Origin: Candidatus Spongiisociaceae bacterium
GTDB taxonomy: Bacteria > Actinomycetota > Acidimicrobiia > Spongiisociales > Spongiisociaceae
Length of the DNA stretch: 64,000 nucleotides
Direction: 5' to 3'
NCBI GenBank assembly: GCA_965219685.1
Contig: CBDCOH010000002.1
Span: 4,288,001 to 4,352,000 of the forward strand
Shown here: in pieces, positions 1-47,856 of the stretch
How positions within the stretch are numbered: position 1 is the stretch's first letter
Layout: each line of letters starts with the position of its first letter
The notes under the pieces: model-generated
The model's input: only the letters and a program-made list of their open reading frames with translations
Told to the model about the DNA's origin: nothing
Database searches by the model: none
Position numbers and translations under genes: made by a program

Positions 1-201
1 AAGGCGCCGGACCTGCTCCACCATGGCCCGGGCGATGTCATCCCGTCCCTGGCCGATGATCGCCGCGCCCGAAACGCCGCTGGTGAGATCCACCAACTCG
101 TGGCCGGCGTCGTCCCACAGCCGGCAGCCCTCGGCCCGCACGAACAGGGGGTACTCGTCGCCGGGGCTCCGGTAGAAGACCGCCGACGGGAACCTATCCA
201 T
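1..201 (-). CDS. Class III (PLP) aminotransferase, N-terminal part; runs off the window edge
   Basis: Own translation from ATG at 201: MDRFPSAVFYRSPGDEYPLFVRAEGCRLWDDAGHELVDLTSGVSGAAIIGQGRDDIARAMVEQV. This matches the class III N-terminal pattern (xxAEGxxLxDxxGxxxxD...G). Confidence 0.8.
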   Translation of the reverse strand, partial: MDRFPSAVFYRSPGDEYPLFVRAEGCRLWDDAGHELVDLTSGVSGAAIIGQGRDDIARAMVEQVRRL

Positions 202-548
202 CGTCGACGGTGTGGTCGCAAACGAATACTGCGGGGTTGGCTACGCGGCAAACTACCTGGTCCGGAGGTTGTGGGCCGGCGAGCGACCCCCTTCGCAGGC
301 ACCCGTCGATCACCTTCATCGGGATGCGCCCTCCTTCCTCCACTCGCGGTATGACACCTGATCAGCCTCGCCATACTCTATTATTCATGCTTATGTGTCG
401 TCTGGATCGGGTGAGCGGAGGAACCGATGCGGCTCAGGAGTGCATCCCCTCACGGCTCCAACCCCACCCGGTCGATGTCACCCTAGACGGCCCGGCCACC
501 CCGACAGCCACCGCTTCTAGTTCGGACACGTAGCACGGGTCCGCTTGT

Positions 549-1922
549 ATGGACGCACTTAGGGGTCGGCTATCCCCCACCGCCATTCTGGCGATGGCAG
601 CCGCGGCCGTCTTCCTGACCGTAGCCAAGACTTCCGCGGCGGCCGTCTCCCAACCCGCTATCGCACACGCCTTCGACGCCGGTCCGGCCGATGTCGGGTG
701 GGTCGTCTTCGGCTTCTCGGGTACGTTCGCCGTCGCCACTGCCGTCTACGGGCCGCTCGCGGTACGTTTCGGGGTGGGGAGAACCCTTGCGTTCGGAATC
801 CTGCTCCTTGCGTTCGGATCTCTCATCGCGCTCGTAGCTCCGACGCTGCAGATCGTGATCGCCGCCCGGATGATCCAAGGAGCCGGTTCGGGTGCCTTAC
901 CGACCCTCTTCCTGGCAATCCTCGCCACGAGGTTTCCCCCGGAGCGGCGGCCCTTCGCCTACGCGGTCATCACCGCCATGCTGGGAATTGCCCAGACGCT
1001 CGGTCCCATCATCGGCGGCCTGCTGGTCGAATTCGTCAGCTGGCGAGCCGCCCTGGCCATCGGGCTGCTCATCTCACCCGCAGCAGCCTTCGTCTGGTAC
1101 GACCTCCCGGAGCCGGGGGACCCGAGCCGGCGGCTCGACTATGCCGGAGCGGCATCCGCAGTCCTCGTGATCGGAAGCTTCGTCTACATTCTGAACCGGC
1201 TCCCCGTCGACGGCGCCACGCTCCTCACGGGGAGCGCCATCCTGGCCGCCGCCGTGGGATCGTTGTTCTCCACGATCTGGGCGAATCGTCACCCGGCGCC
1301 GTTCATCCCGTGCTCGATGGTGCTCGACCGCAGCTACATCGTGCTCGTGACTGCCGGCTTCGTGGGGACCGCCTGCTACCTGGGGACGATCATGGCCCTG
1401 CCGTCCGCACTGGCGAGAGTCCACACGATCGATGCGGTCGGGATCGGACTCGTCATTGTTCCGACCGGCGTTTCGGTAGCGCTCGGGTCAGCAGCGACCG
1501 GCGTCGTGATACGCCGGTTGGGAGATACCGGCGCCGCAATACTGTCACTGCTGTTCCTGTCAGCCGGAACCGGACTGTTCGCCGTGCTCGGCGTGGACAG
1601 GAGCCTCGTCTCGGTGGCCCTGGCCGGGATCCCCATGGGCATGGGGTTGGGACTTCTGAACCCTCCGCTGGTGAACGCCGTGACGCAGCGCTTCGTGGGG
1701 CCCTCCCAGCCGATCGCAATCGGCATCTTCTACCTGGGGTTCTTCTTCGGCGGCGCCGCGGGCGGCGCGGTGACGACCGCGATAGTCCAACGCGACCTGT
1801 CGGTCCCGCTGCTCGGTACAGGGTTTCCGGTAGGCGAGGCAGGGCTGGCTCTCCTGGCTCTCGCCGGAGCCGTCATCATGGCTAGGTCGCTCAACAACAA
1901 CTACGCCACCATCCGCGCGTGA
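549..1922 (+). CDS. MFS transporter (DHA2/14-TM-like)
   Basis: Highly hydrophobic 457 aa, motif-A-like GPLAVRFG and ARMIQGAG; paralog at 23892-25265. Confidence 0.9.
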   Translation: MDALRGRLSPTAILAMAAAAVFLTVAKTSAAAVSQPAIAHAFDAGPADVGWVVFGFSGTFAVATAVYGPLAVRFGVGRTLAFGILLLAFGSLIALVAPTLQIVIAARMIQGAGSGALPTLFLAILATRFPPERRPFAYAVITAMLGIAQTLGPIIGGLLVEFVSWRAALAIGLLISPAAAFVWYDLPEPGDPSRRLDYAGAASAVLVIGSFVYILNRLPVDGATLLTGSAILAAAVGSLFSTIWANRHPAPFIPCSMVLDRSYIVLVTAGFVGTACYLGTIMALPSALARVHTIDAVGIGLVIVPTGVSVALGSAATGVVIRRLGDTGAAILSLLFLSAGTGLFAVLGVDRSLVSVALAGIPMGMGLGLLNPPLVNAVTQRFVGPSQPIAIGIFYLGFFFGGAAGGAVTTAIVQRDLSVPLLGTGFPVGEAGLALLALAGAVIMARSLNNNYATIRA

Positions 1923-2025
1923 GACCCTGCCCGAGAGGGTGCGCGCATAGGCGGGCACGACTGCCGTGGCCCACCCTGCGTGGGACATCTGCACGGAAGG
2001 TAGATGCCCCGCAGGCTCCCGATGT

Positions 2026-3258
2026 TCAGGAATGGTCTGAGTGCCGGATGCGTCGCGCCAGGTACACGGCTCCGAGCAGGACGGGTATCGCCATGACCAG
2101 CGCTGCCGCTCTCACGTTCACGAGGGTGGCTACCGAGCCGTCGATCAGGCTTGCCACCGGCCGGAGGCCCAGGAAGGCCACGCCCCATAGAGCCATCACC
2201 CGGCCGCGATGCTCCTCAGCGACGTTCATCTGTACCAGGGTGGTGGACAGGGTCACCGAGATGATGTACATGATCCCGCCGACGAACAATGCGGCGAGAC
2301 CCATGTTCGGGTGGGTGGACAACCCGAAGAGCGCAATCGCCGTACCTAGGCCGGCCATACCGATTGCGATGCTCCGGAAGGAGGCTCTCACCTTCGTCAC
2401 CGCTAGGGCGGCGGTAAGCGCCGCTCCCAGCCCGAACGCACCGATGAGCACACCCGTGAAGGTGTCCGGCCTCCCGTATATCTCCACGGTGAACGCCGGC
2501 GTCAGATTGCTTACGGGGTCCACCGCGACCGAAACGGCAGCAACCGCGATCAGCAGCGGACCGAGCAGCGGATCCTTGCGGACGACGGTGATCGTCTCCC
2601 GCAGCTTGGCGCGTTCCGCGGGCCGGTCACCCTGGCGCCGCTCGATCCTGAGGATCATCACCGCCCCGGCCAGGGCCAGGTAGGAAAGGGCGTTGATCGA
2701 AAAGGCCCATGTGAACCCGAGGGTAAGGATGATCCCTGCACCCACGACCGGTCCGATCGCCCTGGCAAGGTTGAAGCTGATCGAGCTCAGAGCTACCGCG
2801 GCTTGCAGATCCTTCCGCTCCACGAGGTGCGGAACCAGGGCCTGCTGCGCCGGGAGCAGGAATGCCTTCGTGACGCTGAAGAGCAGGGCAGCCCCTATCA
2901 GCCACATGGGGGTGACCAGCCCGAGATAGTTGACAAGGGCAAGCACCCCGCCTGCTAGTGCAGCCGCCACTTGAGTGACGAAGATCAGCGTGCGCCGATC
3001 GAAGCGGTCGGCCACCGGGCCGGTCCAGGGAGCGAGCACGATCAAGCCCAGGAACTGGGAGAAGGTGGTCATCGCCACCAGGAAGGTCGACCCCGTTAGC
3101 CGGAAGATGAGCAGTGCCAGAGCGATGTTCTGGACCCACGTGCCCATGTTTGATGCCAGGTTTCCGAAGAAGTATGGCCCGAAGTTCCTTCGGAGCAGCA
3201 GGCTCAGAGGCGGGCTGGGCGTGATGTCCGGTTGGGTGGTGTCGATGTCTGAGTCCAT
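2026..3258 (-). CDS. MFS transporter (MFS_3/DHA3-like)
   Basis: GPVADRFDRR motif A, SNMGTWVQ, FNLARAIGP, RGRVMAL. Confidence 0.9.
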   Translation of the reverse strand: MDSDIDTTQPDITPSPPLSLLLRRNFGPYFFGNLASNMGTWVQNIALALLIFRLTGSTFLVAMTTFSQFLGLIVLAPWTGPVADRFDRRTLIFVTQVAAALAGGVLALVNYLGLVTPMWLIGAALLFSVTKAFLLPAQQALVPHLVERKDLQAAVALSSISFNLARAIGPVVGAGIILTLGFTWAFSINALSYLALAGAVMILRIERRQGDRPAERAKLRETITVVRKDPLLGPLLIAVAAVSVAVDPVSNLTPAFTVEIYGRPDTFTGVLIGAFGLGAALTAALAVTKVRASFRSIAIGMAGLGTAIALFGLSTHPNMGLAALFVGGIMYIISVTLSTTLVQMNVAEEHRGRVMALWGVAFLGLRPVASLIDGSVATLVNVRAAALVMAIPVLLGAVYLARRIRHSDHS

Positions 3259-3335: not shown

Positions 3336-4328
3336 TCAGTTCGCCAGACCCAGTTCTCGCAACCGGGGCAGGACTTGATCACCGAGCAACTCGATCGACT
3401 CGAACCACCGGTCGAACCGGAGACGCAGATCGAACACCAGGTGTTCCACTTCGACCTCGGCGAACTTGGTCACCTCCTGCACGACCTCTTCGGGCGACCC
3501 GGCGATGAGGGACCCCTGGATGTCCTCGGCTGTCCTGAAGACGCCGGAAGGAGGCTTCACCCACCACTTGCCCCGTTCGTTCGCCCAGCGGAGCAGCCCG
3601 TCGATGTTGAGGCCGTCGAACGCCTCCTCATGGGTCTTGGCGATCGAGGTGGGGGGGATCACGGCAACCGTGGGGCGGGAGCGGCCTGCCTCGGCGGCCA
3701 TCCTGTCCATCGCCTCCACCCGCTTGGCGATAGTGGCCAGGGTGGTCCTTCCCGGCATCCAGCCGTCGCAGTAGCGCACCGCCCGCCGCGCCGAGGCGGG
3801 GGTCGATCCGCAGTACCAGAAGGGGACATGGCCGGACGGCTTCGGCTCGATCGAGATCTCCTTGAGCTCGTAGTGGGCGTCCCGGTAGTCGACCCGGTCC
3901 TCGGTGAACAGACGCTTGAGGATGTTGGCGTTCGACTCGACCAGTTCGGGACGGAAGATGCCTGGCATACCGATCGCCTCGAATTCGTGATCGAAGGTGC
4001 CGGCGCCGTAACCGATGATGATCCGGTCACCGACCAGTTGGGCGAGTGACCCGACCGACAGGGCGGTGTGGATCGGATGGCGGAAGGGGATCAGGGATCC
4101 CGTTCCGAGCGTGATCCGGTCGGTCACCGCACCGACCGCGGTGAGGGTGGTCAGGGCTTCGTAGAACACGATGTTCGGGTTCTCGAGTTCCTCATGGGGC
4201 TCGAAGACCAAATGGTCTCGTACCCAGAGAGAGTCGAAACCCAACTCTTCGGCGAGCCGGGAACCGACGAGTATCCGCTCGCGGTTGGCGTACGCGCCGA
4301 AGTGGGGTAGGAGCAGGCCGAATTGCAT
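3336..4328 (-). CDS. LLM-class (luciferase-like) flavin/F420-dependent oxidoreductase 1
   Basis: MQFGLLLPHFG...AEELGFDSLWVRDH...DGWMPG; start taken at ATG 4328 by alignment with the two paralogs. Confidence 0.9.
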   Translation of the reverse strand: MQFGLLLPHFGAYANRERILVGSRLAEELGFDSLWVRDHLVFEPHEELENPNIVFYEALTTLTAVGAVTDRITLGTGSLIPFRHPIHTALSVGSLAQLVGDRIIIGYGAGTFDHEFEAIGMPGIFRPELVESNANILKRLFTEDRVDYRDAHYELKEISIEPKPSGHVPFWYCGSTPASARRAVRYCDGWMPGRTTLATIAKRVEAMDRMAAEAGRSRPTVAVIPPTSIAKTHEEAFDGLNIDGLLRWANERGKWWVKPPSGVFRTAEDIQGSLIAGSPEEVVQEVTKFAEVEVEHLVFDLRLRFDRWFESIELLGDQVLPRLRELGLAN

Positions 4329-4347
4329 GGCGGTGAGTCCCCTTCCT

Positions 4348-5721
4348 CTAATTGCCGGGCTTCGCGTGACGGCCGTATCCGGGTTCCCCCTTGACGGTCC
4401 CGTCACCGTATACCTCGTTACCCCTCAGGAAAGTGCGTTCGACGGCCCCGACAACCCGACGCCCGTCATATGCGGTCCATCCGATCTTGGACAGCACGTC
4501 CTCGTTGCGGATGGTCCACTCCTTGGCGGGGTCGACGATCAGCAGATCGGCGTCGAAGCCCGGCCGAAGGTATCCCTTGGAACCGATGTCGAAGGACCGG
4601 GCGGGTGCTTCGGCTATCAACTCGACCACCCGTTCGACGGTGAGCTTGCCCTGGTTGGCGGCATCGAGCAGCAGCGGCACCTGGTGCTGGACTCCGGGAG
4701 TGCCGGTATGGGCGGCCCACATGTCCTCCCAGCCCACATCTTTCTCCGCCCGGGTATGGGGCGCGTGATCGGAGGAGACCATGTCTATGGTTCCATCGTT
4801 CAAGGCCTCCCAGATGGCGGCGCGGTGGTGGTCGGGCACCCAGTAGGACAGGCAGTAGGGCCCGAGTTCGAGCACGTCCTCCCACGTGCTGAGGAACAGG
4901 GCCCAGTGGTTGACCTCGCCCGTGACCGGGATGCCCTCGTCCTTGGCCCGGCGGATCATCTCTATCCCCTCGGTGGTCTGGACGTGGACGATGTGGAGGC
5001 GGCAGCCGGTGGCCTTCGCCATCCGCAGCAGGGTGGCGGTGGCGGTGTCCCAGATGATGCCGTCGTAGGCGGCCAGGGTCTTGGCGTATGCTTCCGGGCT
5101 GCGGTCCCCCCTCTTCCAGTAGCCCTGCTCGACGTGGTCCATCAGGGCTTGGTCGTGCGGGTGGACCATGAACACGCGGCCCGTTTCCTTTACGTCCTCG
5201 AACATCTGCAGCAGGTGGCCGTGGTCGTGGATACCCGTGCCCGCCGGATGGGGATAGGTGCGGCCGGTGTCCACCACCATATACACCTTGAAGGCGGCCA
5301 CTCCGGCCTCGGCCATGGCATCGGTCTCGCCATGGGTGGGTACCGGGTTGTGGTTGTAGTCGACGATGCTCTTGGCTTTGTAGAGGTCCAGGACTTCGTC
5401 TAGGTAGGTCCTGGTCACGGTGGGGGGATCGAGGTTGGGCATCCCGAAGATCGTGGTTACGCCGCCTGCCGCCGCAGCTTCGGTGCAAGTGATCAGGTCT
5501 TCCTTGTGGGTATAGCCTGGTTCGCGGGTGTGAACGTGAACATCCACCATGCCGGGCAGAACCAGTTTGCCGGTGGCGTCCACCACCCGGTCCGCCTCCG
5601 CGCCGGTACCGCTACCAGCGGCGACCTCGACTATCCGCCCGCCGGAGACGAGGATGTCCGCCCGCCGCCGACCCGAACCGGACACGAGAGTTCCTCCGAC
5701 TACGGCCAGATCGTAGGTCAT
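4348..5721 (-). CDS. Dihydroorotase/allantoinase-family cyclic amidohydrolase
   Basis: DVHVHTREPG (HxH), AAAGGVTT, FKVYM (carboxylated Lys position), SSDHAPH. Confidence 0.9.
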   Translation of the reverse strand: MTYDLAVVGGTLVSGSGRRRADILVSGGRIVEVAAGSGTGAEADRVVDATGKLVLPGMVDVHVHTREPGYTHKEDLITCTEAAAAGGVTTIFGMPNLDPPTVTRTYLDEVLDLYKAKSIVDYNHNPVPTHGETDAMAEAGVAAFKVYMVVDTGRTYPHPAGTGIHDHGHLLQMFEDVKETGRVFMVHPHDQALMDHVEQGYWKRGDRSPEAYAKTLAAYDGIIWDTATATLLRMAKATGCRLHIVHVQTTEGIEMIRRAKDEGIPVTGEVNHWALFLSTWEDVLELGPYCLSYWVPDHHRAAIWEALNDGTIDMVSSDHAPHTRAEKDVGWEDMWAAHTGTPGVQHQVPLLLDAANQGKLTVERVVELIAEAPARSFDIGSKGYLRPGFDADLLIVDPAKEWTIRNEDVLSKIGWTAYDGRRVVGAVERTFLRGNEVYGDGTVKGEPGYGRHAKPGN

Positions 5722-6644
5722 GATGTCGCTCCAGGGTCATGGTTGATCGTTACTGGTTCTCTTCGCAGGTGCGTGCTGAACCAGTCGGTGATCTGGGGGA
5801 TCACCGTGTCCGCGTGCTGCGCGTAGGCGCCGTAGTGGGTGGTGTGGCGCTGCATGAGCAGCTTCTTGGGAGGGCGCGCGCGCTCGTACAGGGCCACCGC
5901 ATGGTCGGTGGGGGTAACAGGGTCGTCCTCAACCCCGATGATAAGGAGGGGGGCATCGTCGATCCTGCTGACCGCTTCGATCGGCTTGTACGCGAGTATC
6001 CCGTCCACGCTCCTTAGCTGCACCCGGGTGGGCACGCGGGAGTCCACGTCCTTCTTCACCTTCGTAGCCCTGCGCTCGGGTGTCTGCAGCATGATGTCCT
6101 CGCGAGGATGGACGAGCGCACTCTTCCCCGTCAGGACCCGGTTCGTACGGTCGGCATGGAGGGACTCCAGCAGTTCGTACCATTCGTACTCGCGGCGCAT
6201 CCGCCGCAACCAGTCCTCCCCGTCGGCCACCGGCACCTGCGAGACGGCGCAGCGGATGCGGGAGTCAGCTGCGGCCAGCATTATGGCGTTCCCGCCGCCG
6301 GTTCCTCCGCTCCCGAAAGTGCCGATGCTGTCCTGGTCGACATCCGGCCGTGACGCCATGTAGGTCACCGCGTTGATCAGGTCCTCCAGCTGGCGGGAGG
6401 GCAGCAGGAGATCGCTCGCTCCCTCCGAGGATCCGAAGCCGCGGTAGTCAAAGATGAGCACCGCGATGCCGGCATCGGTGAGGGCTTCGTGGTAGGGGAG
6501 GTAGAGCCGAGCGTCCTTGAGGCCCAGCCAGCCGGGTCCCTGGACCACCGCTGCGTAGGGACCGTCGCCTGTCCGGTCGGGGAGCCGGAGGAGTGCCGAG
6601 ACGCGCTCCCCTTCCGAATAGAACGAAACATCCTCGGCCCTCAC
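5718..6644 (-). CDS. Alpha/beta-fold hydrolase
   Basis: FDYRGFGSSEG, atypical elbow GSGGTGGG, Asp (DDPVTP) and His (TTHY); 4-bp overlap with the next gene. Confidence 0.85.
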   Translation of the reverse strand: MRAEDVSFYSEGERVSALLRLPDRTGDGPYAAVVQGPGWLGLKDARLYLPYHEALTDAGIAVLIFDYRGFGSSEGASDLLLPSRQLEDLINAVTYMASRPDVDQDSIGTFGSGGTGGGNAIMLAAADSRIRCAVSQVPVADGEDWLRRMRREYEWYELLESLHADRTNRVLTGKSALVHPREDIMLQTPERRATKVKKDVDSRVPTRVQLRSVDGILAYKPIEAVSRIDDAPLLIIGVEDDPVTPTDHAVALYERARPPKKLLMQRHTTHYGAYAQHADTVIPQITDWFSTHLRREPVTINHDPGATS

Positions 6645-6690: not shown

Positions 6691-6705
6691 GATATACGGT
6701 ATACA
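6691..6705. promoter_or_regulatory. Putative GntR operator (GATATA-CGG-TATACA)
   Basis: Matches the TGYATA-N3-TATRCA motif at 16551, 41999 and 42798; upstream of the 6644 operon. Confidence 0.5.
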
Positions 6706-8572: not shown

Positions 8573-8666
8573 CGTTTCTCCTCCCGCCGTCCGCCACTCC
8601 GGAGCTCTGCTAGCGGCCTATCCGGCCGGTGGATCGTGCCCGCCCCGCATCGGATACTCTAACCGG

Positions 8667-9533: not shown

Positions 9534-9535
9534 TC

Positions 9536-15408: not shown

Positions 15409-15414
15409 GGGCTG

Positions 15415-15426: not shown

Positions 15427-15453
15427 GCCTGTACGGATGGACACCCGGCCGCG

Positions 15454-35007: not shown

Positions 35008-35023
35008 ACGTGTCGTCCCCTCC

Positions 35024-39775: not shown

Positions 39776-41943
39776 CTCGCGCCTCCTCGAGGTTCTGCAA
39801 CCGCTCCGTTGCGGGTCAGGTGGTAGCTGCGCTGGGCGTCGACCGTGGCGACGAACGAGCCGGGGATGACCACCGTGGTCGTTGGTTCCTCGATGATGGC
39901 CGGCCCGGCGATTCGGTTGCCGGCCTGCAGGCGGCCACCGTCGAAAACGGGGGTGGACACCCGCCCGCCCCCGAACCAGCAGTCACGATGGGATTTGAGC
40001 GCTGCCGACGGATCCGGGCCCCCCCGCGGAATGCGGTGCAGCTCGAAGGGGGCCTTCGGCACGGTGGCCCGCAGCCGGAAGGTCAGCAACTCCACGCCCT
40101 GCCATGGCATGTTGAACGTGTACAGGTCGTAGTGCTTGGCGTGGAAGTTGTCGATGGCCTCCTCGACCGCGTCCAGCATCCGCATCCCGCCCGCGTCCCG
40201 GAAGACGCTCGCCCGGAAGGTCCTCTCCGCGGTGTCGGAGAGGTCCTGGCCGGGATCCATCGGCATCTCCACCTCCACCTCGTGGAACTGCCCTATGTAC
40301 CGGAGATCGGCGGTGCGGTGGAAGCTCACATCCTCGGCCCGGTATCCCATTTCTTCGAAGCCGGCGACGGCTTCCTGCTCCATCTCCCCGTAGAGTTCCT
40401 GTACCCGGTCGGCGTCGAGGTCGACGAAACGGGTGATGTAGGAGCGGGCGTAGTTCCGGCCCACATCCATCGCGAACATCCCGAAGGCCGAGTAGGTGGA
40501 GGCCACAGACGGTACGATCACGTTCGGGAGACCGAGTATGTCGGCGATGAACGCGGCATGCACCGGACCGGCCCCGCCCCCGGCCACCAGGGTCAGGTCC
40601 CGCACGTCTATTCCCCGCCGGGTCGAGACCTCGTTGATCTCATCGGCGGTGAACGAACTGACCGCGGTCATGATCGCCTGCGCAGCCTCCTCGAGGCTCA
40701 TCCCGAGGGGTCCGGCCACCCGCTCCATGATCGCCACTTCTGCCAGATCTGAGTCGAGTTCGATCTCGCCTCCCAGGAAGAACCCCGGATCTATGTACCC
40801 GAGGGCCAGATCGGCGTCGGTTACGGTGGGATCCTTCCCGCCCTTCGCGTAGCAGGCGGGCCCCGGATCGCTCCCGGCCGAACTCGGGCCCACCCGCAGC
40901 AGCCCCAGCGAGTCGACCCACGCGATGGACCCGCCCCCGGCGCCGGCCGAGACGATGTCCACCATCTTGATGGCTACGCGCTCGTCCTGGACCCATCCCT
41001 CGGTCGTGGTGGGAATCTCGCCCCGCATCACCACCCCGATGTCGATGGAAGTTCCTCCCATGTCAAAGCTGAGCAGGTTCCCGTGGCCGGTCTCGGCACC
41101 CAGATGGACAGCTCCGGCAGGTGCTGCGGCCGGTCCGGATCCGATCAGATAGACCGCGCGGGGAATGCAGTTCTCGACCGTCTCCACCAGACCGTCGGAG
41201 AGCATCATCATCAGGCTGCCCGAGAAGCCGTTATCGCCCAGCCGTTCCTCCAGTGCCAGCAGGTAGCGCTTCACGGCCGGTCCGGTGTACGCGGACACGG
41301 CCATCGTGGAGAAGCGCTCCCATTCCCGCCACACGGGGAGGATCTGGGATGAGGTGGTCACGTAGACGCCCTCGCCGAGTTCCTCCTCGACGATCGCAGC
41401 GGCGCGCTGCTCGTGGGCGGGGTTGGCGTAGGAGTGCAGGAAACCGACCGCCACCGACTCGACGCCCTCCCGGTCGAGCCGGCGGGCCGCCTCGCGTACT
41501 TCGTCCTCGTCGAGAGGGGTGAGGACCTCGCCCGTGTACAGCACCCGTTCCTCGGCCTCGAGCCGGCGACGCCTCGGGATCAGCGGCTTGTAGGGGGGCA
41601 CGAAGACGTTGTACATGGAGGTCCGCACGTTCTTGTAGCCGCGCCTTATCTCGAGCATGTCCCGGAAGTGTTTGGTCGTGATCATCCCGGTCCGGGCGCC
41701 GTCCTCGTTTATCAGGGTGTTGGTGGCGAGAGTCGTCCCGTGAATGAGGAGATCGACCTGTCCGAGGAAGTCGGCCAGTCCAAGACCGTAGGCCGTTGCC
41801 GCCTTGGAGAGGGCGTCTACGCAGCCGACCGAAGGATCAGGTGGGGTGGTGGGCGCCTTGAACTGCCGCAGGTCACCTCTCTGCTCGTCAAGGACGAGGC
41901 AATCGGTGAAGGTTCCTCCGACATCGATGGCTACCCGATACAT
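39772..41943 (-). CDS. Hydantoinase A/oxoprolinase-family ATP-dependent subunit
   Basis: IDVGGTFTD, HGTTLATN, SGPAA, DMGGTS, GAGGGSIA, PGPACY, PTVTDAD. Confidence 0.96.
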   Translation of the reverse strand: MYRVAIDVGGTFTDCLVLDEQRGDLRQFKAPTTPPDPSVGCVDALSKAATAYGLGLADFLGQVDLLIHGTTLATNTLINEDGARTGMITTKHFRDMLEIRRGYKNVRTSMYNVFVPPYKPLIPRRRRLEAEERVLYTGEVLTPLDEDEVREAARRLDREGVESVAVGFLHSYANPAHEQRAAAIVEEELGEGVYVTTSSQILPVWREWERFSTMAVSAYTGPAVKRYLLALEERLGDNGFSGSLMMMLSDGLVETVENCIPRAVYLIGSGPAAAPAGAVHLGAETGHGNLLSFDMGGTSIDIGVVMRGEIPTTTEGWVQDERVAIKMVDIVSAGAGGGSIAWVDSLGLLRVGPSSAGSDPGPACYAKGGKDPTVTDADLALGYIDPGFFLGGEIELDSDLAEVAIMERVAGPLGMSLEEAAQAIMTAVSSFTADEINEVSTRRGIDVRDLTLVAGGGAGPVHAAFIADILGLPNVIVPSVASTYSAFGMFAMDVGRNYARSYITRFVDLDADRVQELYGEMEQEAVAGFEEMGYRAEDVSFHRTADLRYIGQFHEVEVEMPMDPGQDLSDTAERTFRASVFRDAGGMRMLDAVEEAIDNFHAKHYDLYTFNMPWQGVELLTFRLRATVPKAPFELHRIPRGGPDPSAALKSHRDCWFGGGRVSTPVFDGGRLQAGNRIAGPAIIEEPTTTVVIPGSFVATVDAQRSYHLTRNGAVAEPRGGAR

Positions 41944-41998: not shown

Positions 41999-42013
41999 TG
42001 TATACCTTATGCA
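41999..42013. promoter_or_regulatory. Putative GntR operator (TGTATA-CCT-TATGCA)
   Basis: Quasi-palindrome about 55 nt upstream of the hydantoinase operon. Confidence 0.65.
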
Positions 42014-42093: not shown

Positions 42094-42753
42094 CTACGGG
42101 GTCTCCTCCGACATGGTCGCCAGCAGGTCGTCCCGGGCTTCCTCAAGATGTGCCGCGACCGCGAGGGCGGCTCCGTCGGCGTCCCCGTTCTTGATGCAGT
42201 TGCGCACCTGCGAGTGAGCGGCGTGTGCCAGATCGGTATCCTGCAGGATGTGGTAGCGGCCGACGTTGTCCCGGAGTTGCATGATGAGGCGATGCATCCG
42301 GGGTCGCCCCGCGTGAGAGTAGAGCACGTCGTAGAACCTGCGCCGGGCGCTCCGTCCCTCGGACGCGTTCCGGTGCGAAGTGTCCATGTGCTTCGACAAC
42401 TCCACCACGTCCGCCATTTCCCGGCTTCCCGCGAGGTTCTGGACTGCGTACCGGATGCAGCAACCCTCGAGCATGATCCTCAACTCGTAGATCTCCGCTA
42501 TGTCGCGGGTGGACAGAGCCGTCACCCAGGCCCCCCGCCGTCCGTCGATCCTCACCAGTGCCTCCTCGCCGAGGCGGCGCAGCGCATCACGCAAGGGGAT
42601 ACGGCTGACTCCCAGTTGCCGGGCCAGTTCCGCCTGGGCGAGTCGTTCGCCGGGCATGAGCCGGCCGCTGAGAATGGCGTCTCGGAGGGCGGATGTCACC
42701 GCATCCTCGGCGCTGAGCGGTTCGACGACGGGTAGCAACTTGGTTCCGCTCAT
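42094..42753 (-). CDS. GntR-family (FCD domain) transcriptional regulator
   Basis: LRDAILSGRLMPGERL...LGVSRIPLRDAL...EIYELRIMLE...HLE. Confidence 0.95.
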   Translation of the reverse strand: MSGTKLLPVVEPLSAEDAVTSALRDAILSGRLMPGERLAQAELARQLGVSRIPLRDALRRLGEEALVRIDGRRGAWVTALSTRDIAEIYELRIMLEGCCIRYAVQNLAGSREMADVVELSKHMDTSHRNASEGRSARRRFYDVLYSHAGRPRMHRLIMQLRDNVGRYHILQDTDLAHAAHSQVRNCIKNGDADGAALAVAAHLEEARDDLLATMSEETP

Positions 42754-42797: not shown

Positions 42798-42812
42798 GGC
42801 ATATTGTATGCA
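42798..42812. promoter_or_regulatory. Putative GntR operator (GGCATA-TTG-TATGCA)
   Basis: Between the gntR start and the divergent amidohydrolase operon, the usual autoregulatory position. Confidence 0.65.
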
Positions 42813-43014
42813 GGGGTCGCCCGGGCGGCCCTGACTGATCGGGGTCTTCCGTAGAATGTAGCTCGAATACTCGCTAGGGAGGGTGGAGTGAAACTCCTGC
42901 ACGGGCCGCCGACTCGTGACATTATGCCTGGTCAGAGGAAGACAGGCCGTTGCTCACCACGGTCTTAGACCACCCTCCGGGGCCATCCCGCCACGACTGT
43001 CGAGGACACAGGGA

Positions 43015-44421
43015 GTGATTGTCGCAGACCTACCCCGCCGGGGGAGCTACGTGATCCGCAACACCACCGCGCTGACCATGGATCCGGCCCTGGGAGAACT
43101 CAGGGGTATTGATCTCCGGATCGAAGACGGGGTCCTGGTAGCGGTGGGCCGGCGGTTGGCCGCAGATGGGTCCGAGGCCATCGACGGAAGCAACTGCATC
43201 ACCTTGCCCGGCTTCGTCGATTCGCACTGGCACGTCTGGGGCACACTTCTCAGAGGGGTGGTCGGCGACGGGAAGCAGCACGGATGGTTCGCCACCAAGG
43301 GCAGGCTCGGGGGTTTCTTCACGTCCGAGGATGTGGCGGCCGGGGTGATGCTCGGCATGGCCGAGGGCATTGCCGCCGGGGTTACCACGGTCCACGACTG
43401 GTCACACAACATCATGCGGTACAGCGACGCCGAGGCAAACCTCGATGTGCATCGGCGGCTGGGAACCAGGGTGCACTTTTCGTACTCCGCGCCCTCGGCG
43501 CATCCCTCGATGCCGATGGAGAAGATGCGCGCGATCCTGGAGAAAGGCGGGGTCCTGCCCGACGAGGTCATGGACTTCGGGAACATCGGGAGGATCGCCC
43601 AGGAGTGGGTGCCGCATTCGGAGGGGCTCCTCACCCTCGGTGTGGGGGTTCGCGGGCCTGCCCGGTCGACGCCCCAGGTCTACCGCAAGGAATGGGCGCT
43701 GGCGAGGGAGCAGGGATTGACGATCTCGATGCACTGCGCCGGGACACGGGCGGAGGTGCGGCGCATCCACCAGGTCCAGATCCTGCATGACGACGGTCTC
43801 CTGGGACCCGACATGCTCCTGGCGCACTGCCTCTACATTTCCCCGGCCGAACGGGAGCATCTGGCCGTCAACCGGATCCCGGTGAGCATGAGCCCCATGT
43901 CCTCGCTGAGGTTGGGCATGGGTGCGCCCCCGGTCGGCGGGCACCTCGCCGCAGGGATCTCCGTCAGCCTTTCGCTGGACACCACGGCGATCTCGGCCTG
44001 CGCCGATGTCTTCGCAGCCATGCGAGTGGCGGTAGGGCTGGAGGCGATCGCCAACCAGGACGCCGAGGCGCTGAGCCCCCGGCGGGCCTTGGAGTTGGCG
44101 ACGATCGAGGGGGCTAGAGCCCTGGGTCTCGACCATCTGGTGGGATCGTTGTCGGTGGGCAAGCGCGCCGACCTGATCATGGTGAGGACCGACGCCCTGA
44201 ACATGGCGCCCGTCCATTACCCGGCGGTGGCAGTAGTCCATTCCGCTCAGCCGGCGAACGTCGACCTGGTGATGGTCGACGGACGGATCCTCAAGCGCGA
44301 CGGACGACTGACCGCGGTCGACGCCGCAGCAGCCGTCGACAACGCCTCCGGTCGCCTGAGGGATCTGTGCGCTCGGGCCGGATACCGGCCTCCCGACGGC
44401 CGGCAGGGGAGCGCGGGATGA
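43015..44421 (+). CDS. Amidohydrolase-family protein (Atz/Trz/SAH-deaminase-like)
   Basis: PGFVDSHWH, GVTT, AHC, SLD, ATIEGARALG, GKRADL; start uncertain. Confidence 0.88.
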   Translation: MIVADLPRRGSYVIRNTTALTMDPALGELRGIDLRIEDGVLVAVGRRLAADGSEAIDGSNCITLPGFVDSHWHVWGTLLRGVVGDGKQHGWFATKGRLGGFFTSEDVAAGVMLGMAEGIAAGVTTVHDWSHNIMRYSDAEANLDVHRRLGTRVHFSYSAPSAHPSMPMEKMRAILEKGGVLPDEVMDFGNIGRIAQEWVPHSEGLLTLGVGVRGPARSTPQVYRKEWALAREQGLTISMHCAGTRAEVRRIHQVQILHDDGLLGPDMLLAHCLYISPAEREHLAVNRIPVSMSPMSSLRLGMGAPPVGGHLAAGISVSLSLDTTAISACADVFAAMRVAVGLEAIANQDAEALSPRRALELATIEGARALGLDHLVGSLSVGKRADLIMVRTDALNMAPVHYPAVAVVHSAQPANVDLVMVDGRILKRDGRLTAVDAAAAVDNASGRLRDLCARAGYRPPDGRQGSAG

Positions 44422-45272
44422 AGACGACCATCCGGGTCGGTGATGTCGAGGTCACGGCCATACAGGACAAGGCCCACGCCTTCGACCGGGCGTGGCACTA
44501 CCCGGGCGTTCCCGAAGAGGCTTGGGCCCCGTACGTGGACCTCTTGGAGAGCGAGCCGGGGAGCGCAATGGTCAACTTCCATTGCTTCGTGGTTCGTGGC
44601 GACGACCGTGTGGTGCTGGTCGACACCGGCTGGGGACCCGAGTTGGGTCCTCCCGGGGCACCTAGGTCGCGGGGAGCCCTGCCGGAACGGCTGGCGGAGA
44701 TGGGGTTGCAGCCGGAGGATGTCGATCTGGTGGCCTTCACCCACCTCCACGCCGATCATGTGGGCTGGAACCTGGTGTACGACGGGGAGGCGATCGCTCC
44801 CCGCTTCGCTAACGCCCGCTACCTGGTCTCCGAGAACGACTGGACCTTCTTCAGCGCCCGTGAGGAGAACCACCCGAACATCGCCCGCCAGGCTCTGCCC
44901 CTGGAAAGCACCGGGGTCCTCGACACCTTCTCGGACGGTCACCGGGTCACCCCCTCGGTCACGGCGGTGGCCACCCCGGGACACACCCCCGGGCACACCA
45001 GCTTCGTGATCCACTCCGGCAGCGAGCGGTTGTTCATCCTCGGCGACCTGATCCACCATCCCGTTGTGGCAACCGAGACGGGCTGGGTTCACCGGTTCGA
45101 CGCGGATCCCCGGGAAGCGGTCGTGACGAGGAAACGGGAACTCCGCCGGCTCGAAAAGGACCGTACCCTCGTGGCGGCCGGCCACCTGAACCACCCCAGC
45201 TTCGGCAGGTTCGAGCGCCGGGACGGACAGAGGAAGTGGCTACCTTGGCCGAGCGCGCGGGACGGCGCCTGA
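44418..45272 (+). CDS. MBL-fold metallo-hydrolase (lactonase-like)
   Basis: LVDTG, THLHADHVG, TPGHTPGH, GDL, GH. Confidence 0.93.
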   Translation: MKTTIRVGDVEVTAIQDKAHAFDRAWHYPGVPEEAWAPYVDLLESEPGSAMVNFHCFVVRGDDRVVLVDTGWGPELGPPGAPRSRGALPERLAEMGLQPEDVDLVAFTHLHADHVGWNLVYDGEAIAPRFANARYLVSENDWTFFSAREENHPNIARQALPLESTGVLDTFSDGHRVTPSVTAVATPGHTPGHTSFVIHSGSERLFILGDLIHHPVVATETGWVHRFDADPREAVVTRKRELRRLEKDRTLVAAGHLNHPSFGRFERRDGQRKWLPWPSARDGA

Positions 45273-45275
45273 ACC

Positions 45276-45740
45276 GTGGATCTCTTCGGTGTCCTGCTGT
45301 TCCTGCATCTGTTCGGTGCGATGGCCGGGATCGGTCCCACCTTCGTGTTCGGAAGGATCAGCAGGCAGGGCGCACGAACCGAACACAGCCTCTTCGCCAC
45401 CCGGGTAGTCCGTCTCCTTACCAGCACCACCGCGATTCCACTCTCGGCACTGGTTCTGCTGTCCGGGATAGGGCTCATGGTGGTACAGGGCTACGGCTTG
45501 TTCGACCGGATGTGGCTGCTCGCCTCCATAGTCCTCTTCGCGGGCAGCTTCACCTATTCGGTGACGGTTCAGAACCCCACCCTGGCACGGGTAATCGAAG
45601 CCACCCGGGACGACGGGGAGCCCTCTCCGGAACGCATGGCGGAGATAACGCGGCTGCGTGCCCGGATTCGCCGGGGCGGAATCTACCTGCGCTCGACCGC
45701 GACCGTGATCCTGGCTCTGATGATCTTCAAACCCTTCTGA
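45276..45740 (+). CDS. DUF2269-like membrane protein
   Basis: Four TM segments, LFLHLF start, LMIFKPF end. Confidence 0.75.
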   Translation: MDLFGVLLFLHLFGAMAGIGPTFVFGRISRQGARTEHSLFATRVVRLLTSTTAIPLSALVLLSGIGLMVVQGYGLFDRMWLLASIVLFAGSFTYSVTVQNPTLARVIEATRDDGEPSPERMAEITRLRARIRRGGIYLRSTATVILALMIFKPF

Positions 45741-45786
45741 AGGAGGACCATGTGCACATTCACCCCTGAATCGGAGGTCTCAACCG

Positions 45787-46641
45787 ATGGTTGAAGCGAT
45801 CACCCCCCTCGTCTCGGGCGACTGGCTCGAAGCACGCCTCGACGATCCGACCGTACGGGTCATCGAGATCCAATACGAGGCGGACAGCAGCGAGTACGAC
45901 GACGGCCATATCCCCGGCGCTGTCAACTGGTATTGGAAGGACGTGCTCTGGCACCCCATGGAACGGCAGTTCCCCACCCCTCAACTGATGGCCGAGCGTC
46001 TAGGTGCCTGGGGTATCTCACCGGATACGACCCTCGTCTTCTACAGCGGGCGCAACCAGTATGCGATCTTCGCCTACTGGGTGACCTCGGTCATGAACGG
46101 CCATCCCGATGCCCGCGTTCTCGACGGGTCACAGAAGCGCTGGCAGATCGACGGGAGGCGGCTGACGACGGAGATCCCGGCCTTCGATCCGGTGCACTAC
46201 GAGCCGCAGCGGGCCGAACGCGACGACTCGACGCGGGTGTACTGCCGCCAGTTGCTGGCAGACCTGGGGAAACCGGGGCTGGTGGTGCTGGACGGACGGT
46301 ACGAGTCGGAGTATTCGGGAGAGCGGGTCAAGCCCGGCACCGGGTTCGATTACGGGGCCGAGCGCCACGGCCGCATCCCCGGCGCCAGGCACCTGATGTT
46401 CCGCCGCCTGTTCAACGACGACAACACACTCAGGACGCCAGGAGAACTGGAGGAGGTCTTCCGGTCGGTGGGCGCGGCGCCCGACCAAGCCGACGAAGTG
46501 GTCGCCTACTGCCGCCTGAGTCACAGGGCGTCCTTGCTCTGGTTCACCGCCACCCGGATACTCGGTTGGGATCATGTCCGGGTGTATGACGGATCGTGGA
46601 CCGAGTGGGGTTCGTCGGTCGGGCTTCCGGTCGAGCGGTAG
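45787..46641 (+). CDS. Tandem-domain rhodanese/sulfurtransferase
   Basis: GHIPGA, YCRLSHR active loop, YDGSWTEW. Confidence 0.95.
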   Translation: MVEAITPLVSGDWLEARLDDPTVRVIEIQYEADSSEYDDGHIPGAVNWYWKDVLWHPMERQFPTPQLMAERLGAWGISPDTTLVFYSGRNQYAIFAYWVTSVMNGHPDARVLDGSQKRWQIDGRRLTTEIPAFDPVHYEPQRAERDDSTRVYCRQLLADLGKPGLVVLDGRYESEYSGERVKPGTGFDYGAERHGRIPGARHLMFRRLFNDDNTLRTPGELEEVFRSVGAAPDQADEVVAYCRLSHRASLLWFTATRILGWDHVRVYDGSWTEWGSSVGLPVER

Positions 46642-46707
46642 CCGGGTCCCTTGGGAGGAACCGCCTGACAACCGGTCGATCAGCACCGCCGACCGGCGGC
46701 GGTTCGC

Positions 46708-47856
46708 CTACCCGGCAAGCAACTCTGCGGTCAGGTCCGTGTCCGCAGCCGCGTCGATCGCGGTCCAGGCCAGGGCCACCGCACCGTCGACGACCGCCTG
46801 GTCTGCGGCGGGGAGGGCGGCCGCGTCGGTGAAGCCGGGCTGGTGGTTCACCGCCGGGAGGGAGTCGATCCCGATGAAGGGATGGATGGTCGGAACCTCG
46901 AGCGAGACGTTCCCCATGTCGGTCGAGACGGGTGGGACGGGCCCGTCGTAGAAGGACCTTCCCAGCTGTTCCGCGTTGTACCTGTACCGTTTCGCCAGCG
47001 CTGGGTGGTGCTCCAGGTGACTGTACGGGGGGTTCGGCCTGTTCAGGGTCAGTTCCGCCCCTGTGGCCAGCGCGCCGGCCTCGAAGCATGCCTCCACCCG
47101 CCTGCGCAGGGCGTCGAGTTGGTCGACATGCGGGGTCCGGACCATGTAGGAGGCCGTCCCCAGAGCCGGAATGATGTTGGCGGCGGTGCCCGCCTCGGTC
47201 ACGATCCCGTGCACGCGGTCGGTGGCGTTCAAATGCTGGCGGAGCAGCCCGATCGCCACCTGAGCGACCACCAGCGCGTCGGCTGCGTTGACTCCCTGCT
47301 CGGGGAAGGCCGACGCATGCGCTTCCTTGCCCGTGTAGGAGACCTCCAGCCACTCGATCGCCACCACCGGAGGCGCCGCAACGTCGAAGGGGGCGGGATG
47401 AACCATCATGGCCGCGTGGGCGGCGTCGAAGGCACCCGCCTCCAGCAGCAGGACCTTGCCGCCACCGGCCTCCTCGGCCGGGGTGCCCAGGATCGTGACT
47501 TCGAGGCCGATGTCGCCCGCCACCTCGACCAGTCCCAAACCGGCGCCGACCGCAGCAGCCGAGATGACGTTGTGTCCGCACGCGTGCCCGATCCCTGGGA
47601 GAGCGTCGTATTCGGCGCAGATGACGACCCGGAGCGGTCCGTTCCCCGCCACTGCTCGGACCGCGGTCGGGATCCCGCCGTAACCGGTCTCGACGGAGAA
47701 CCCCGCACGGTCCAGGGCGTCCGCCACGGAAGCCGCCGACCGCACCTCCTCGAAAGCGGTCTCGGCGTAGCCATGGATTCCGTGGCTCAAGGCAAGCAAC
47801 TCACCCCTGGCCTGTTCGATTACCCCCTGAACCACCGCCTTGGCGTCCGTTCCCAC
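46708..47856 (-). CDS. M20 amidohydrolase (ACY1L2/PM20D2-like)
   Basis: EYDALPGIGHACGHN, GTPAEE.GGGK, STDMGNVS. Confidence 0.93.
   Translation of the reverse strand: MGTDAKAVVQGVIEQARGELLALSHGIHGYAETAFEEVRSAASVADALDRAGFSVETGYGGIPTAVRAVAGNGPLRVVICAEYDALPGIGHACGHNVISAAAVGAGLGLVEVAGDIGLEVTILGTPAEEAGGGKVLLLEAGAFDAAHAAMMVHPAPFDVAAPPVVAIEWLEVSYTGKEAHASAFPEQGVNAADALVVAQVAIGLLRQHLNATDRVHGIVTEAGTAANIIPALGTASYMVRTPHVDQLDALRRRVEACFEAGALATGAELTLNRPNPPYSHLEHHPALAKRYRYNAEQLGRSFYDGPVPPVSTDMGNVSLEVPTIHPFIGIDSLPAVNHQPGFTDAAALPAADQAVVDGAVALAWTAIDAAADTDLTAELLAG

Follow-up and report, generated by a model that had tools for sequence, protein, structure and literature searches.

Here, we describe a gene region in DNA from a Candidatus Spongiisociaceae bacterium of the class Acidimicrobiia; the whole analysed stretch of 64,000 nucleotides (G000:C2:4288001-4352000, from a 4.42-Mb assembly in two contigs) is called the window, and positions are counted from its first letter. 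With moderate confidence we regard positions 2026-46641 as a horizontally spread catabolic island of sponge-associated Acidimicrobiia, which would unite three older modules, mostly in one regulon, for an imported cyclic amide, ureide or N-heteroaromatic compound. An earlier reading of the letters alone, the original prediction, had proposed one co-regulated pathway for an N-heterocycle. What stands of it is that about 30 kb share an operator-like motif and that the blocks travel together; the region itself has turned out to be a mosaic of separable modules with flanks and an insertion. The coherent unit is 2026-46641, and genes g01 and g38 are its flanks.

Genes were called by third-position GC and then scanned against the profiles of Pfam and NCBIfam, the Pfam scan covering 39 open reading frames (ORFs) in 1-47856. 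All gene families listed in the original prediction were located where it had placed them, and an alpha/beta-hydrolase, DoxX, FAD and [2Fe-2S] subunits, an OsmC-like protein, a Zn-dependent alcohol dehydrogenase (Zn-ADH), an MBL hydrolase, DUF2269 and a double rhodanese could be added. The region consists of three modules, called blocks A, B and C, and is not one operon. Block A (g02-g10) contains genes for an MFS transporter, a luciferase-like oxidoreductase (LLM), a hydantoinase-like amidohydrolase, an alpha/beta-hydrolase, an M20 enzyme, DoxX and the FAD, FeS and Mo subunits of a Mo-hydroxylase. Block B (g11-g20) holds an amidase, a nitrilase fold without its Cys, LLMs, a NitT/TauT importer, OsmC and an MFS carrier, and block C (g21, g26-g37) a GntR regulator, HyuA and HyuB (HyuAB), two pairs of E1-type thiamine diphosphate (ThDP) enzyme subunits, a lone Mo subunit, Zn-ADH, a ring deaminase, MBL, DUF2269 and rhodanese. 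Curated NCBIfam cut-offs are reached by only 2 of 38 proteins, both in generic matches (g34 to NF006056 'hypothetical protein', g38 to TIGR01891 'amidohydrolase'), so that no part can be assigned to a characterised pathway by sequence; in keeping with the original prediction, none of the blocks maps to a separate known pathway. Sixteen of the 126 chromosomal loci of the listed families lie in 1-47856, compared with 7 in the next-best 48-kb window, and windows reaching 16 make up 0.09% of all 48-kb windows; since the families were defined from the window itself, this concentration is partly circular and overstates the case.

Distribution of the three blocks among relatives

Sixty relatives (G numbers; the tallies include the unpublished G032 and G043, on which no individual claim is based) were searched, and the block boundaries come from a tblastn comparison of every protein of the window with the neighbourhoods fetched. 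Orthologs of HyuA (87-93%; next-best at most 43%) occur in nine of them, namely G001, G002, G003, G005, G006, G021, G023, G026 and G027, and the same nine possess orthologs of g04 (87-93%) and of the substrate-binding protein (SBP) g14. The co-occurrence of the sub-operons that the original prediction looked for elsewhere is therefore real within this sample: all three blocks are present in these nine relatives out of 60, arranged in at least four ways. A-B-C is contiguous in G001, G021, G023, G026 and G027. G002 shows the order C, 21 kb, B, about 28 kb, A, and in G003 block C adjoins A, B being placed on a different contig. G005 and G006 are complete genomes (g19 and g20 are outside the stretches fetched from them); here A and B lie together and C is found 620-690 kb away. 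Together with the flanking position of g01 and g38 and the foreign insert at 26.5-31.6 kb, this contradicts the idea of a single contiguous unit of ~48 kb. An intact block on its own was found in none of the 60 relatives, and the closest one by LigA (G007, 88%) has none of the three. Homologs of g04 at 61% occur in G008 and G059. In the 2.8-Mb genome of G004 a decayed remnant of block A (G004:C1:1055854-1060961) retains truncated MFS_3, amidohydrolase and M20 genes without Mo genes or operator; blocks B and C are absent from G004.

Identities of housekeeping proteins drop from the carriers of genus g1 to those of genus g7 (LigA from 78-86% to 70-71%, MnmA from 76-78% to 71-73%, IscS-like protein from 81-82% to 73-74%). 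Island proteins reach means of 82.8-83.4% in G002, G003, G005 and G006 and 87.1% in G001 for genus g1, and 83.9-85.8% in genus g7, the pattern being alike for all three blocks. A, B and C are thus decoupled from the species signal in like manner, which would fit transfer as a set and which we take as an indication of it, not as proof. From 48 kb rightward the window contains the housekeeping genes RpiB, NifU, MeaB, IscS-like, MnmA, LigA and DapE. In G021 (G021:C1:228001-288000) the whole island lies between NifU/membrane-protein genes and RpiB; these NifU and RpiB genes sit together right of the island in the window, which suggests a shared insertion region.

Operator-like motif and altered active sites

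A conserved operator-like motif with the core GTATAC heads the operons of the left part of block A, of block B and of block C (Table 1). All seven GTATAC hexamers of the window lie inside the island; shuffled sequences have a mean of 2.9, and a count of seven came up in 3 of 100 shuffles. In the intergenic DNA of the island (2.6 kb) no other hexamers are as enriched as TATACA, GTATAC and ATACAG. Six sites are located at or beside operon starts (g05, g12<>g13, g14, twice in g19<>g20, and hyuA); the hexamer at 4408 was dropped as it is not conserved in relatives. Outside the motif blocks the spacers are barely alignable, with the exception of a few short blocks such as CATG near hyuA and GTTGC upstream of g14. 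All ten genomes share the invariant GCATA(A/T)nGTATACAATC in the hyuA spacer, surrounded by unalignable DNA, and the invariant CTGTATAC(A/C)TTATGC in the g14 spacer; the ten-genome alignment of the g05 spacer contains the invariant block ATATACgGTATACA.

Under a first-order Markov model the chromosome should contain the exact 13-mer GTATACnTTATGC 0.02 times; it was seen twice, upstream of hyuA and of g14. For the strict class [GA][CT]ATA[ACT]nGTATAC, which was defined after the sites had been seen, 0.2 matches are expected and three were found in 4.39 Mb, one per block. Five copies of TGTATACA outside the island (at ResIII helicase, Fic and DUF4143 genes, in an unannotated stretch and at another NMT1/ABC locus) were not accepted as regulon members, and a relaxed match to the 13-mer at C2:3633545 was discarded as it lacks the core. 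The fullest form of the motif is the inverted repeat G(C/T)ATA-n3-TAT(A/G)C. FadR-type GntR regulators bind operators of such inverted-repeat kind, and the sole regulator in the island is the GntR/FCD protein g33 (orthologs 76-87% in the nine relatives, 52% in L062 and 57% in L047), by which the operator would most likely be read. The conserved, island-specific motif thus gives the proposed co-regulation sequence support for about 30 kb. Outside the family, L050 and L083 carry GTATACAAT between hyuA and g05, L062 has it upstream of its GntR ortholog, and in L129 it precedes g05 by 18 nt. Among L053-L057 (Chloroflexota, no GntR match) there is a lone GTATAC in L056, more than 1.5 kb from any conserved gene.

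The original prediction had further spoken of many non-canonical active sites, and this holds for two proteins. One is the nitrilase-fold protein g12, which appears to be co-transcribed with the amidase g11. Nitrilases (CN_hydrolase) have the catalytic triad Glu-Lys-Cys; aligned with NitA (6zby), g12 shows LAGGEN instead of LCCAEH, with Gly at the position of the nucleophilic Cys, and the Glu and Lys of the triad align. LAGGEN is found in 9/9 orthologs of g12 (75-83% identity), the paralogs of the own genome have CWEN, and a 44% homolog in G008 retains the Cys. Thus g12 could be a pseudoenzyme or a partner subunit, or it could catalyse by another mechanism. The other protein is the second E1 alpha subunit. 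In E1 alpha subunits the His of the loop R-x-x-G-H-x-x-x-D-P serves lipoyl acylation and GDG-x(24-30)-NN is the ThDP motif. Both alpha subunits of the island contain GDG-x26-NN; the loop of E1alpha-1 (RLRGHYEGDP, human RYHGHSMSDP) retains the His, whereas that of E1alpha-2 (RWPGSRPLWP, human RYHGHEMSDP) has Ser in its place. E1alpha-2 matches only positions 2-227 of the 300-position E1_dh profile, and the match ends in the same way in its counterparts from L056, L070 and L083. A Pfam scan of the island detected no E2 or E3 gene, and it is unlikely that the E1alpha-2 pair serves a lipoyl-E2. The other motifs checked, by common motif definitions, look ordinary (GGSSGG in the amidase, HxH in both amidohydrolases, HxHxDH in MBL).

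Modules in other lineages and competing explanations

A scan with the HyuB ortholog alignment against one genome per GTDB species yielded 37 loci (L numbers), 29 of them outside the known carriers. In 14 of these 29, from Acidimicrobiia, Chloroflexota and metagenome-assembled genomes (MAGs) labelled Delta- and Alphaproteobacteria, both E1 pairs (at least 55% identity) stand beside HyuB. Zn-ADH (46-54%) occurs just downstream of the E1 genes in eight loci, all from Chloroflexota, rhodanese (57-58%) in four and the AtzA-like amidohydrolase (57%) in three. Homologs of the g34-g37 genes at 43-58% flank the HyuAB-E1 core in Chloroflexota; in L056 genes for MBL, amidohydrolase, an NMT1-type SBP, permease and ATPase diverge from those for HyuA, HyuB, E1 subunits and rhodanese. 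The lone Mo subunit of the g26 type (MoL2) adjoins the HyuAB core only within the family.

In metagenomes at least 547 relatives of g04 are encoded, of which the best 80 were analysed. A homolog of the LLM g03 (LLM1) is present in 45/80 and one of g05 in 49/80 of these loci. Neighbours were counted in the 30 loci that have 8 kb of flank or more: LLM1 and g05 are found in 21 each, ABC ATPase in 14, CoxL-type subunits in 11, FeS subunits and GntR in 8 each, FAD subunits in 6, M20 in 5, HyuA/B and E1 in one (L083), and amidase or nitrilase fold in none. Examples are L111 with CoxG, FAD, FeS and Mo subunits and g03-g05-type genes in one co-directional row, L127 with FAD and Mo subunits, GntR and the amidohydrolase and LLM of the unit, and L086 with GntR, MFS, aldehyde dehydrogenase, a POX-type ThDP enzyme, amidohydrolase and LLM, M20 and ABC ATPase. 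The g05/g04/g03 unit borders on the HyuAB-E1 core in L050 (64-70%) and in L062 (44-62%, with the GntR ortholog and, as in the island, an adjoining MFS_3 gene); g05 alone lies beside the core in L047 and L048, and L142 combines the unit with a HyuA homolog. Block A is thus a recurrent environmental module and the core of block C a second, cross-phylum one, the two being joined only occasionally. The pair of amidase and nitrilase fold from block B was met, among the loci scanned, only in the sponge family. L050 and L083 share one arrangement, are low in GC and labelled Pseudomonadota, and probably represent one lineage. In both, the LLM/amidohydrolase/hydrolase unit and HyuAB-E1 are accompanied by CofD, an Fgd-like LLM, 6-phosphogluconolactonase and 6PGD, which looks like a self-contained F420 supply beside catabolic genes.

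Several observations weigh against one regulon with one function. No operator site was seen at the Mo-hydroxylase operon or at g06 and g38, the two M20 genes. A -10-like hexamer (TACAAT or TATACA) overlaps with the GTATAC block, and at g14 this block is preceded by the conserved GTTGC at a distance of about 16 nt, so that motif conservation may partly reflect the promoter itself. GTATAC occurs beside g05 in only three of eight GntR-bearing metagenome loci, and L050/L083, where a GntR gene adjoins the motif, encode a regulator with no more than 27% identity to g33. Outside the family the modules are mostly found apart, contrary to the co-occurrence expected from the original prediction: HyuA/B stands beside the g04 unit in 2/80 metagenome loci (1/30 with at least 8 kb of flank), none of the 29 outside loci has a Mo subunit, amidase, nitrilase fold or M20 gene beside the HyuAB core, and in the Proteobacteria-labelled L069 and L070 the core lies among LysR, TRAP, CoA-transferase, acyl-CoA dehydrogenase, SDR and UbiD genes without C-N hydrolases. 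Moreover, the nine carriers are kin and may go back to a small number of independent events; blocks transferred together on one island would also show this distribution even if they had no functional link. At least three independent catabolic operon sets could instead share a mobile island or insertion hotspot, with the similar operator being a common promoter type or the target of a broad-specificity regulator. This we consider possible, if rather unlikely. It would suit the separate occurrence of the modules outside the family, the overlap of the motif with a -10-like hexamer, the physical separability of the blocks, the unrelated insert with insertion sequence (IS) and NTPase genes in mid-region and the richness of the genome in paralogs (30 CoxL-type large subunits, 19 FAD and 22 FeS subunits, 12-16 HyuA, 13 HyuB, 10 E1 pairs, 17 PRK08204-like amidohydrolases, 10 cyclic amidohydrolases and 9 amidases). 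It is harder to reconcile with the confinement of the strict 13-mer to the island (3/3 copies in 4.39 Mb), with the lack of any intact single block in the relatives searched, where only the decayed remnant of G004 was met, and with the fact that the left unit of A and the core of C are neighbours in other phyla too.

The nature of the substrate can also be read differently. HyuAB and the E1 enzymes might act on a nitrogen-free ketone or cyclic carbon compound, in the style of acetone/acetophenone carboxylases or of acetoin cleavage, and the C-N hydrolases might be later, lineage-specific additions for another compound; the surroundings of the core in L069 and L070 and the Zn-ADH that follows it in eight Chloroflexota loci would agree with this. 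Yet the closest solved relatives of HyuB are lactam and hydantoin hydrolases (6yra with 276 bits, N-methylhydantoinase 7hk5 with 268), acetophenone carboxylase reaching 110 bits, the best NCBIfam matches are caprolactamase subunits, and the Chloroflexota versions carry an AtzA-like amidohydrolase and an NMT1-type importer, which makes this explanation improbable in our view. A catabolic pathway for lumichrome or riboflavin, of which the original prediction had been reminded, does exist in the form of the lumichrome operon of Nocardioides simplex (PMC12746152). That source describes the self-sufficient P450 LumU, which oxidises the C7 methyl, the hydrolases LumH, LumI and LumM, a thiamine pyrophosphate (TPP) decarboxylase LumK/LumL of 20 + 23 kDa, a single-chain xanthine oxidase LumJ of 140 kDa, a four-component Rieske dioxygenase LumABCD and an extradiol dioxygenase LumE (PMC12746152). 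Hydrolases of pyrimidine rings, ThDP-dependent decarboxylation and hydroxylation by the xanthine oxidase family in one cluster are common to both at the level of superfamilies. In the 39 ORFs of 1-47856, however, Pfam detects no domain of a P450, Rieske or extradiol dioxygenase, the ThDP enzymes are E1 alpha/beta subunits of 319-401 aa as called, unlike the small LumK and LumL, and separate FAD, FeS and Mo subunits make up the Mo enzyme, in contrast with the single chain of LumJ. With the defining enzymes of the described pathway missing from the island, we reject this identity as extremely improbable.

We therefore return to the island as one catabolic system, for which a cyclic amide, ureide or N-heteroaromatic compound is our best guess of a substrate. 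This compound would enter via the NitT/TauT ABC importer and/or the MFS carriers, the Mo-hydroxylase would put an oxo group beside a ring nitrogen, an F420-type LLM could then reduce the ring, and the hydantoinase-like amidohydrolase would open it. Acyl or carbamoyl groups would next be removed by the alpha/beta-hydrolase, M20 enzyme and amidase. HyuAB, driven by ATP, might open a second, unactivated lactam or hydantoin ring, and the two E1-type ThDP enzymes might decarboxylate the resulting 2-oxo-acid-like products; Zn-ADH would handle an alcohol or aldehyde, and the AtzA-like amidohydrolase would finally strip an exocyclic amino group. A bolder version, which we offer tentatively and consider unlikely to hold in full, is that HyuA-HyuB and two E1-type ThDP heterodimers constitute an undescribed cross-phylum ensemble (Acidimicrobiia, Chloroflexota, Proteobacteria-labelled MAGs), one alpha subunit being without the His and without service to a lipoyl-E2. 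It would link the opening of an unactivated lactam or hydantoin ring, at the cost of ATP, to a ThDP-dependent decarboxylation of the product, in spirit like LumK/LumL. The sponge symbionts would have combined it, under the control of one GntR operator, with the F420-LLM/hydantoinase/hydrolase unit, the Mo-hydroxylase and the importer, and the whole would mineralise a host- or sponge-derived bicyclic N-heterocycle outside known pathways.

Known systems resemble parts of this scheme. The HyuAB pair has the two-subunit domain architecture of CapAB and N-methylhydantoinase, and its best NCBIfam matches are CapA (592 bits) and CapB (358 bits); it stays far under the equivalog cut-offs of 1000 bits (NF050156, NF050157) and differs in being translationally coupled to two E1-type ThDP pairs. 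These E1 proteins share E1_dh and Transket_pyr/Transketolase_C domains with the E1 of 2-oxo-acid and acetoin dehydrogenases, the E1 alpha of pyruvate dehydrogenase (PDH) being the best solved relative, but the island lacks E2 and E3 and its second alpha subunit the loop His. The hyu genes of Arthrobacter reportedly comprise an L-hydantoinase, an M20 L-carbamoylase and a permease. The nearest solved relative of g04 is that ATP-independent L-hydantoinase (1gkr, 213 bits), and M20 and MFS genes are found in the same block A; on the other hand, Pfam detects no hydantoin racemase in the island, g04 is bracketed by LLM and alpha/beta-hydrolase, and its homologs are often joined to a Mo-hydroxylase (11/30 loci). 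In the anaerobic breakdown of nicotinate Eubacterium barkeri is said to use a Mo nicotinate dehydrogenase, a 6-hydroxynicotinate reductase and an enamidase. Block A similarly pairs a Mo-hydroxylase with a possible ring reductase (the F420-type LLM) and a cyclic amidohydrolase; the reductase family is another and the organism of aerobic type, so that this is an analogy of mechanism without membership at sequence level. From Ssu and Tau systems one knows the combination found in block B, i.e. an NMT1/SsuA-like SBP, two permeases, a TauB-like ATPase and LLM genes. All of these remain under the cut-offs (SsuA_fam 78.5 bits vs 163.5, SsuD 36-48 vs 510-518), TauD is absent, the LLMs match F420-type families best and no flavin reductase is present in the island. 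Among the matches listed in literature searches there was no paper that describes HyuAB with two E1 pairs or hydantoinases in sponge Acidimicrobiia, and nothing on the F420-LLM/hydantoinase unit.

What can be put forward is a concrete regulon hypothesis, with one regulator, five promoters and a defined operator, on an island that would move between lineages of sponge symbionts. Two widespread environmental building blocks have been separated from each other, namely HyuAB with two E1 pairs and the unit of F420-type LLM, hydantoinase-like amidohydrolase and alpha/beta-hydrolase, often with a Mo-hydroxylase. Identification of the ligand would annotate hundreds of homologous loci and could reveal a nitrogen-rich compound that symbionts take from their host. 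For the conserved Cys-less nitrilase fold and the His-less E1alpha, new activities or non-catalytic roles come into question.

Features of the island and its surroundings

Table 1. Genes, operator-like sites and insertion in and beside the island (window positions)
Feature	Position	Strand	Evidence
g01, MFS (DHA2-type), left flank	549..1922	+	72% paralog of g20
g02, MFS_3 transporter	2026..3258	-	Pfam; orthologs 79-87% in 9 relatives
g03, LLM1, luciferase-like oxidoreductase	3336..4406	-	TIGR03619 156 bits vs cut-off 167
g04, cyclic amidohydrolase (hydantoinase/allantoinase/dihydroorotase group)	4348..5721	-	Pfam, NCBIfam
g05, alpha/beta-hydrolase, first gene of g05-g04-g03(-g02) operon	5718..6644	-	PDB 7qjm 135 bits
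Operator-like site ATATACgGTATAC upstream of g05	6692..6704	.	One of the three strict-class matches in the chromosome; GTATAC at orthologous spacer in 9/9 relatives
g06, M20 (ArgE/DapE-type) deacylase	6765..8033	-	Pfam, NCBIfam
DoxX-family membrane protein	8171..8617 (stop-to-stop frame, start uncertain)	-	Pfam DoxX 63 bits
g08, FAD subunit of Mo-hydroxylase	8439..9533	+	Domain from residue 81
g09, [2Fe-2S] subunit	9335..10021	+	XdhC-/glyceraldehyde-DH-gamma-like, under cut-offs
g10, Mo large subunit 1 (CoxL/Xdh family)	9838..12426	+	682 bits vs 950 for CODH group 5
g11, amidase-signature enzyme	12776..14236	-	Pfam, NCBIfam; GGSSGG motif
g12, nitrilase-fold protein without catalytic Cys	14233..15444	-	Alignment to NitA 6zby
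g13, LLM2	15196..16422	+	Pfam, NCBIfam
GTATAC core (tGATCGTATACGATg) in g12<>g13 divergent spacer	15418..15423	.	Orthologous place in 9/9 relatives
Operator-like site GTATACATTATGC, overlapping first bases of annotated g14 ORF (start 16561)	16552..16564	.	9/9 relatives
g14, tandem double NMT1/SsuA-type SBP, fused	16561..18810	+	Pfam, NCBIfam
g15 + g16, two ABC permeases	18890..20841	+	Pfam, NCBIfam
g17, LLM3	20876..22003	+	Pfam, NCBIfam
g18, OsmC-like protein	within 20876..22579 (g17 + g18)	+	Pfam, NCBIfam
g19, ABC ATPase (TauB/NrtD-like)	22844..23662	-	247 bits vs cut-off 357
Double site TGTATACAgtgctcTGTATACA in g19<>g20 spacer	23729..23750	.	7/9 relatives; other two without g19/g20 in fetched stretches
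g20, MFS (DHA2-type)	23796..25265	+	Pfam
g21, Zn-dependent MDR dehydrogenase	within 23796..26461 (g20 + g21)	+	Pfam
Low-GC insertion, ~5.2 kb	26462..31625	.	GC ~0.56-0.58
g26, Mo large subunit 2 (MoL2), last gene of hyuA operon	31626..33896	-	Pfam, NCBIfam
g27 + g28, E1beta-2 + E1alpha-2	34021..36088	-	Pfam
g29 + g30, E1beta-1 + E1alpha-1 (canonical PDH-type E1)	36021..38005	-	Pfam, NCBIfam
g31, HyuB	38012..39775	-	Hydantoinase_B 455 bits, full-length Pfam match
g32, HyuA	39772..41943	-	Hydant_A_N, Hydantoinase_A, Hydant_A_C at 260, 182, 85 bits, full-length Pfam
Operator-like site GTATACCTTATGC, 57 nt upstream of hyuA	42000..42012	.	9/9 relatives
g33, GntR/FCD regulator	42094..42753	-	GntR wHTH 61 bits + FCD 53 bits
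GCATATTGTATGC, inverted repeat GCATA-n3-TATGC, gntR<>g34 spacer	42799..42811	.	Invariant ATTGTATGCA in 10/10 genomes
g34, AtzA/8-oxoguanine-deaminase-type amidohydrolase	42916..44421	+	Pfam, NCBIfam
g35 (MBL hydrolase), g36 (DUF2269 membrane protein), g37 (double rhodanese)	within 42916..46641	+	Pfam, NCBIfam
g38, M20 (TIGR01891) amidohydrolase, right flank	46708..47856	-	Pfam, NCBIfam

In block A the LLM g03 is probably F420-dependent. The genome encodes CofG (452 bits, above cut-off) and a CofD-like protein (250 bits vs cut-off 257), and a scan of the island with Pfam and NCBIfam found no flavin reductase; on these grounds the LLMs are more likely F420-dependent than flavin-dependent. None of the NCBIfam equivalogs is reached by g04, which scores 256 bits vs 393 for dihydropyrimidinase, 286 vs 358 for allantoinase and 308 vs 452 for dihydroorotase, and lies just under the cut-off of TIGR00857 (278.1 vs 279.05). 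RutA of the Rut pathway is likewise missed by g03 and g13 (29-30 bits vs 498). The Mo large subunits are below the equivalog cut-offs for carbon monoxide dehydrogenase (CODH) and xanthine dehydrogenase (g10 682 vs 950, g26 508 vs 790). An AY(R/x)CSFR loop is the mark of form I CODH, and a motif search found no AYxCSFR-like loop in g10 or g26. Some starts have to be corrected: the true start of g08 is probably later than 8439, as the FAD domain begins only at residue 81, and those of g09 and g10 are probably near 9530 and 10018. The DoxX frame shows a codon-like conservation pattern in the cross-genome alignment and is the real gene there; the ORFs at 8085-8429 (plus strand) and 8106-8597 (minus strand) are spurious.

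In block B the start of g13 is probably near 15440, because its orthologs span about 80% of the ORF. The SBP g14 has no close relative among solved structures. Its tandem duplication forms one 749-aa ORF in the source genome and is also fused in G002, G005 and G006; an in-frame TAG splits it in G023, G026 and G027, and G001, G003 and G021 have a single copy.

Judged by its domains, g31/g32 is an ATP-dependent enzyme of the HyuA/HyuB family of hydantoinase/lactamase type, with HyuB 94-97% identical in the carrier relatives. From hyuA to the E1beta-2 gene the coordinates show overlaps and gaps of 4 to 16 nt, an indication that these genes form one transcription unit. MoL2 (g26) has no adjacent FeS or FAD partner, g21 travels with block C (it lies beside MoL2 in G005 and G006), and the nearest solved relatives of g34 are AtzA and 8-oxoguanine deaminase.

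As to the flanks, the best matches of g01 in relatives fall on the ortholog of g20, and g38 adjoins the island only in G001 and G002. The GC content of the window is about 66%, except for 26.5-30.5 kb with about 56%. The stretch 26462-31625 is a mobile insertion found only in this genome, since the gap between g21 and g26 measures 23-500 bp in six relatives (5171 bp here) and its gene g22 occurs in 0/9 carrier relatives. A 785-aa protein with AAA_16 and pentapeptide repeats, for which PADLOC gave no match, is encoded here at 26970-29327 (minus strand). The insertion further carries remnants of IS3/IS30 type, namely an IS30-type HTH_38 fragment (30924-31388) and an ALIL pseudoknot (29696-29811) of the type known from IS3-family frameshifting.

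Elsewhere in the genome, L081 (G000:C2:3284001-3304000) contains a paralogous set of nitrilase fold, two Mo large subunits, E1beta, E1alpha, HyuB and HyuA, by which the theme of HyuAB plus E1 is duplicated within the genome. No riboswitch or tRNA was found in the window. A PIN-domain gene lies at 52349-52744, and an AbiEi/AbiEii type IV toxin-antitoxin pair at the right window end (62347-63998). Left of the window, L082 (G000:C2:4268001-4288000) holds a corrinoid-dependent methyltransferase set with URO-D-like methyltransferase, B12-binding protein, RACo activase and pterin-binding protein, together with phosphotriesterase-family, cupin and class-III aminotransferase genes.

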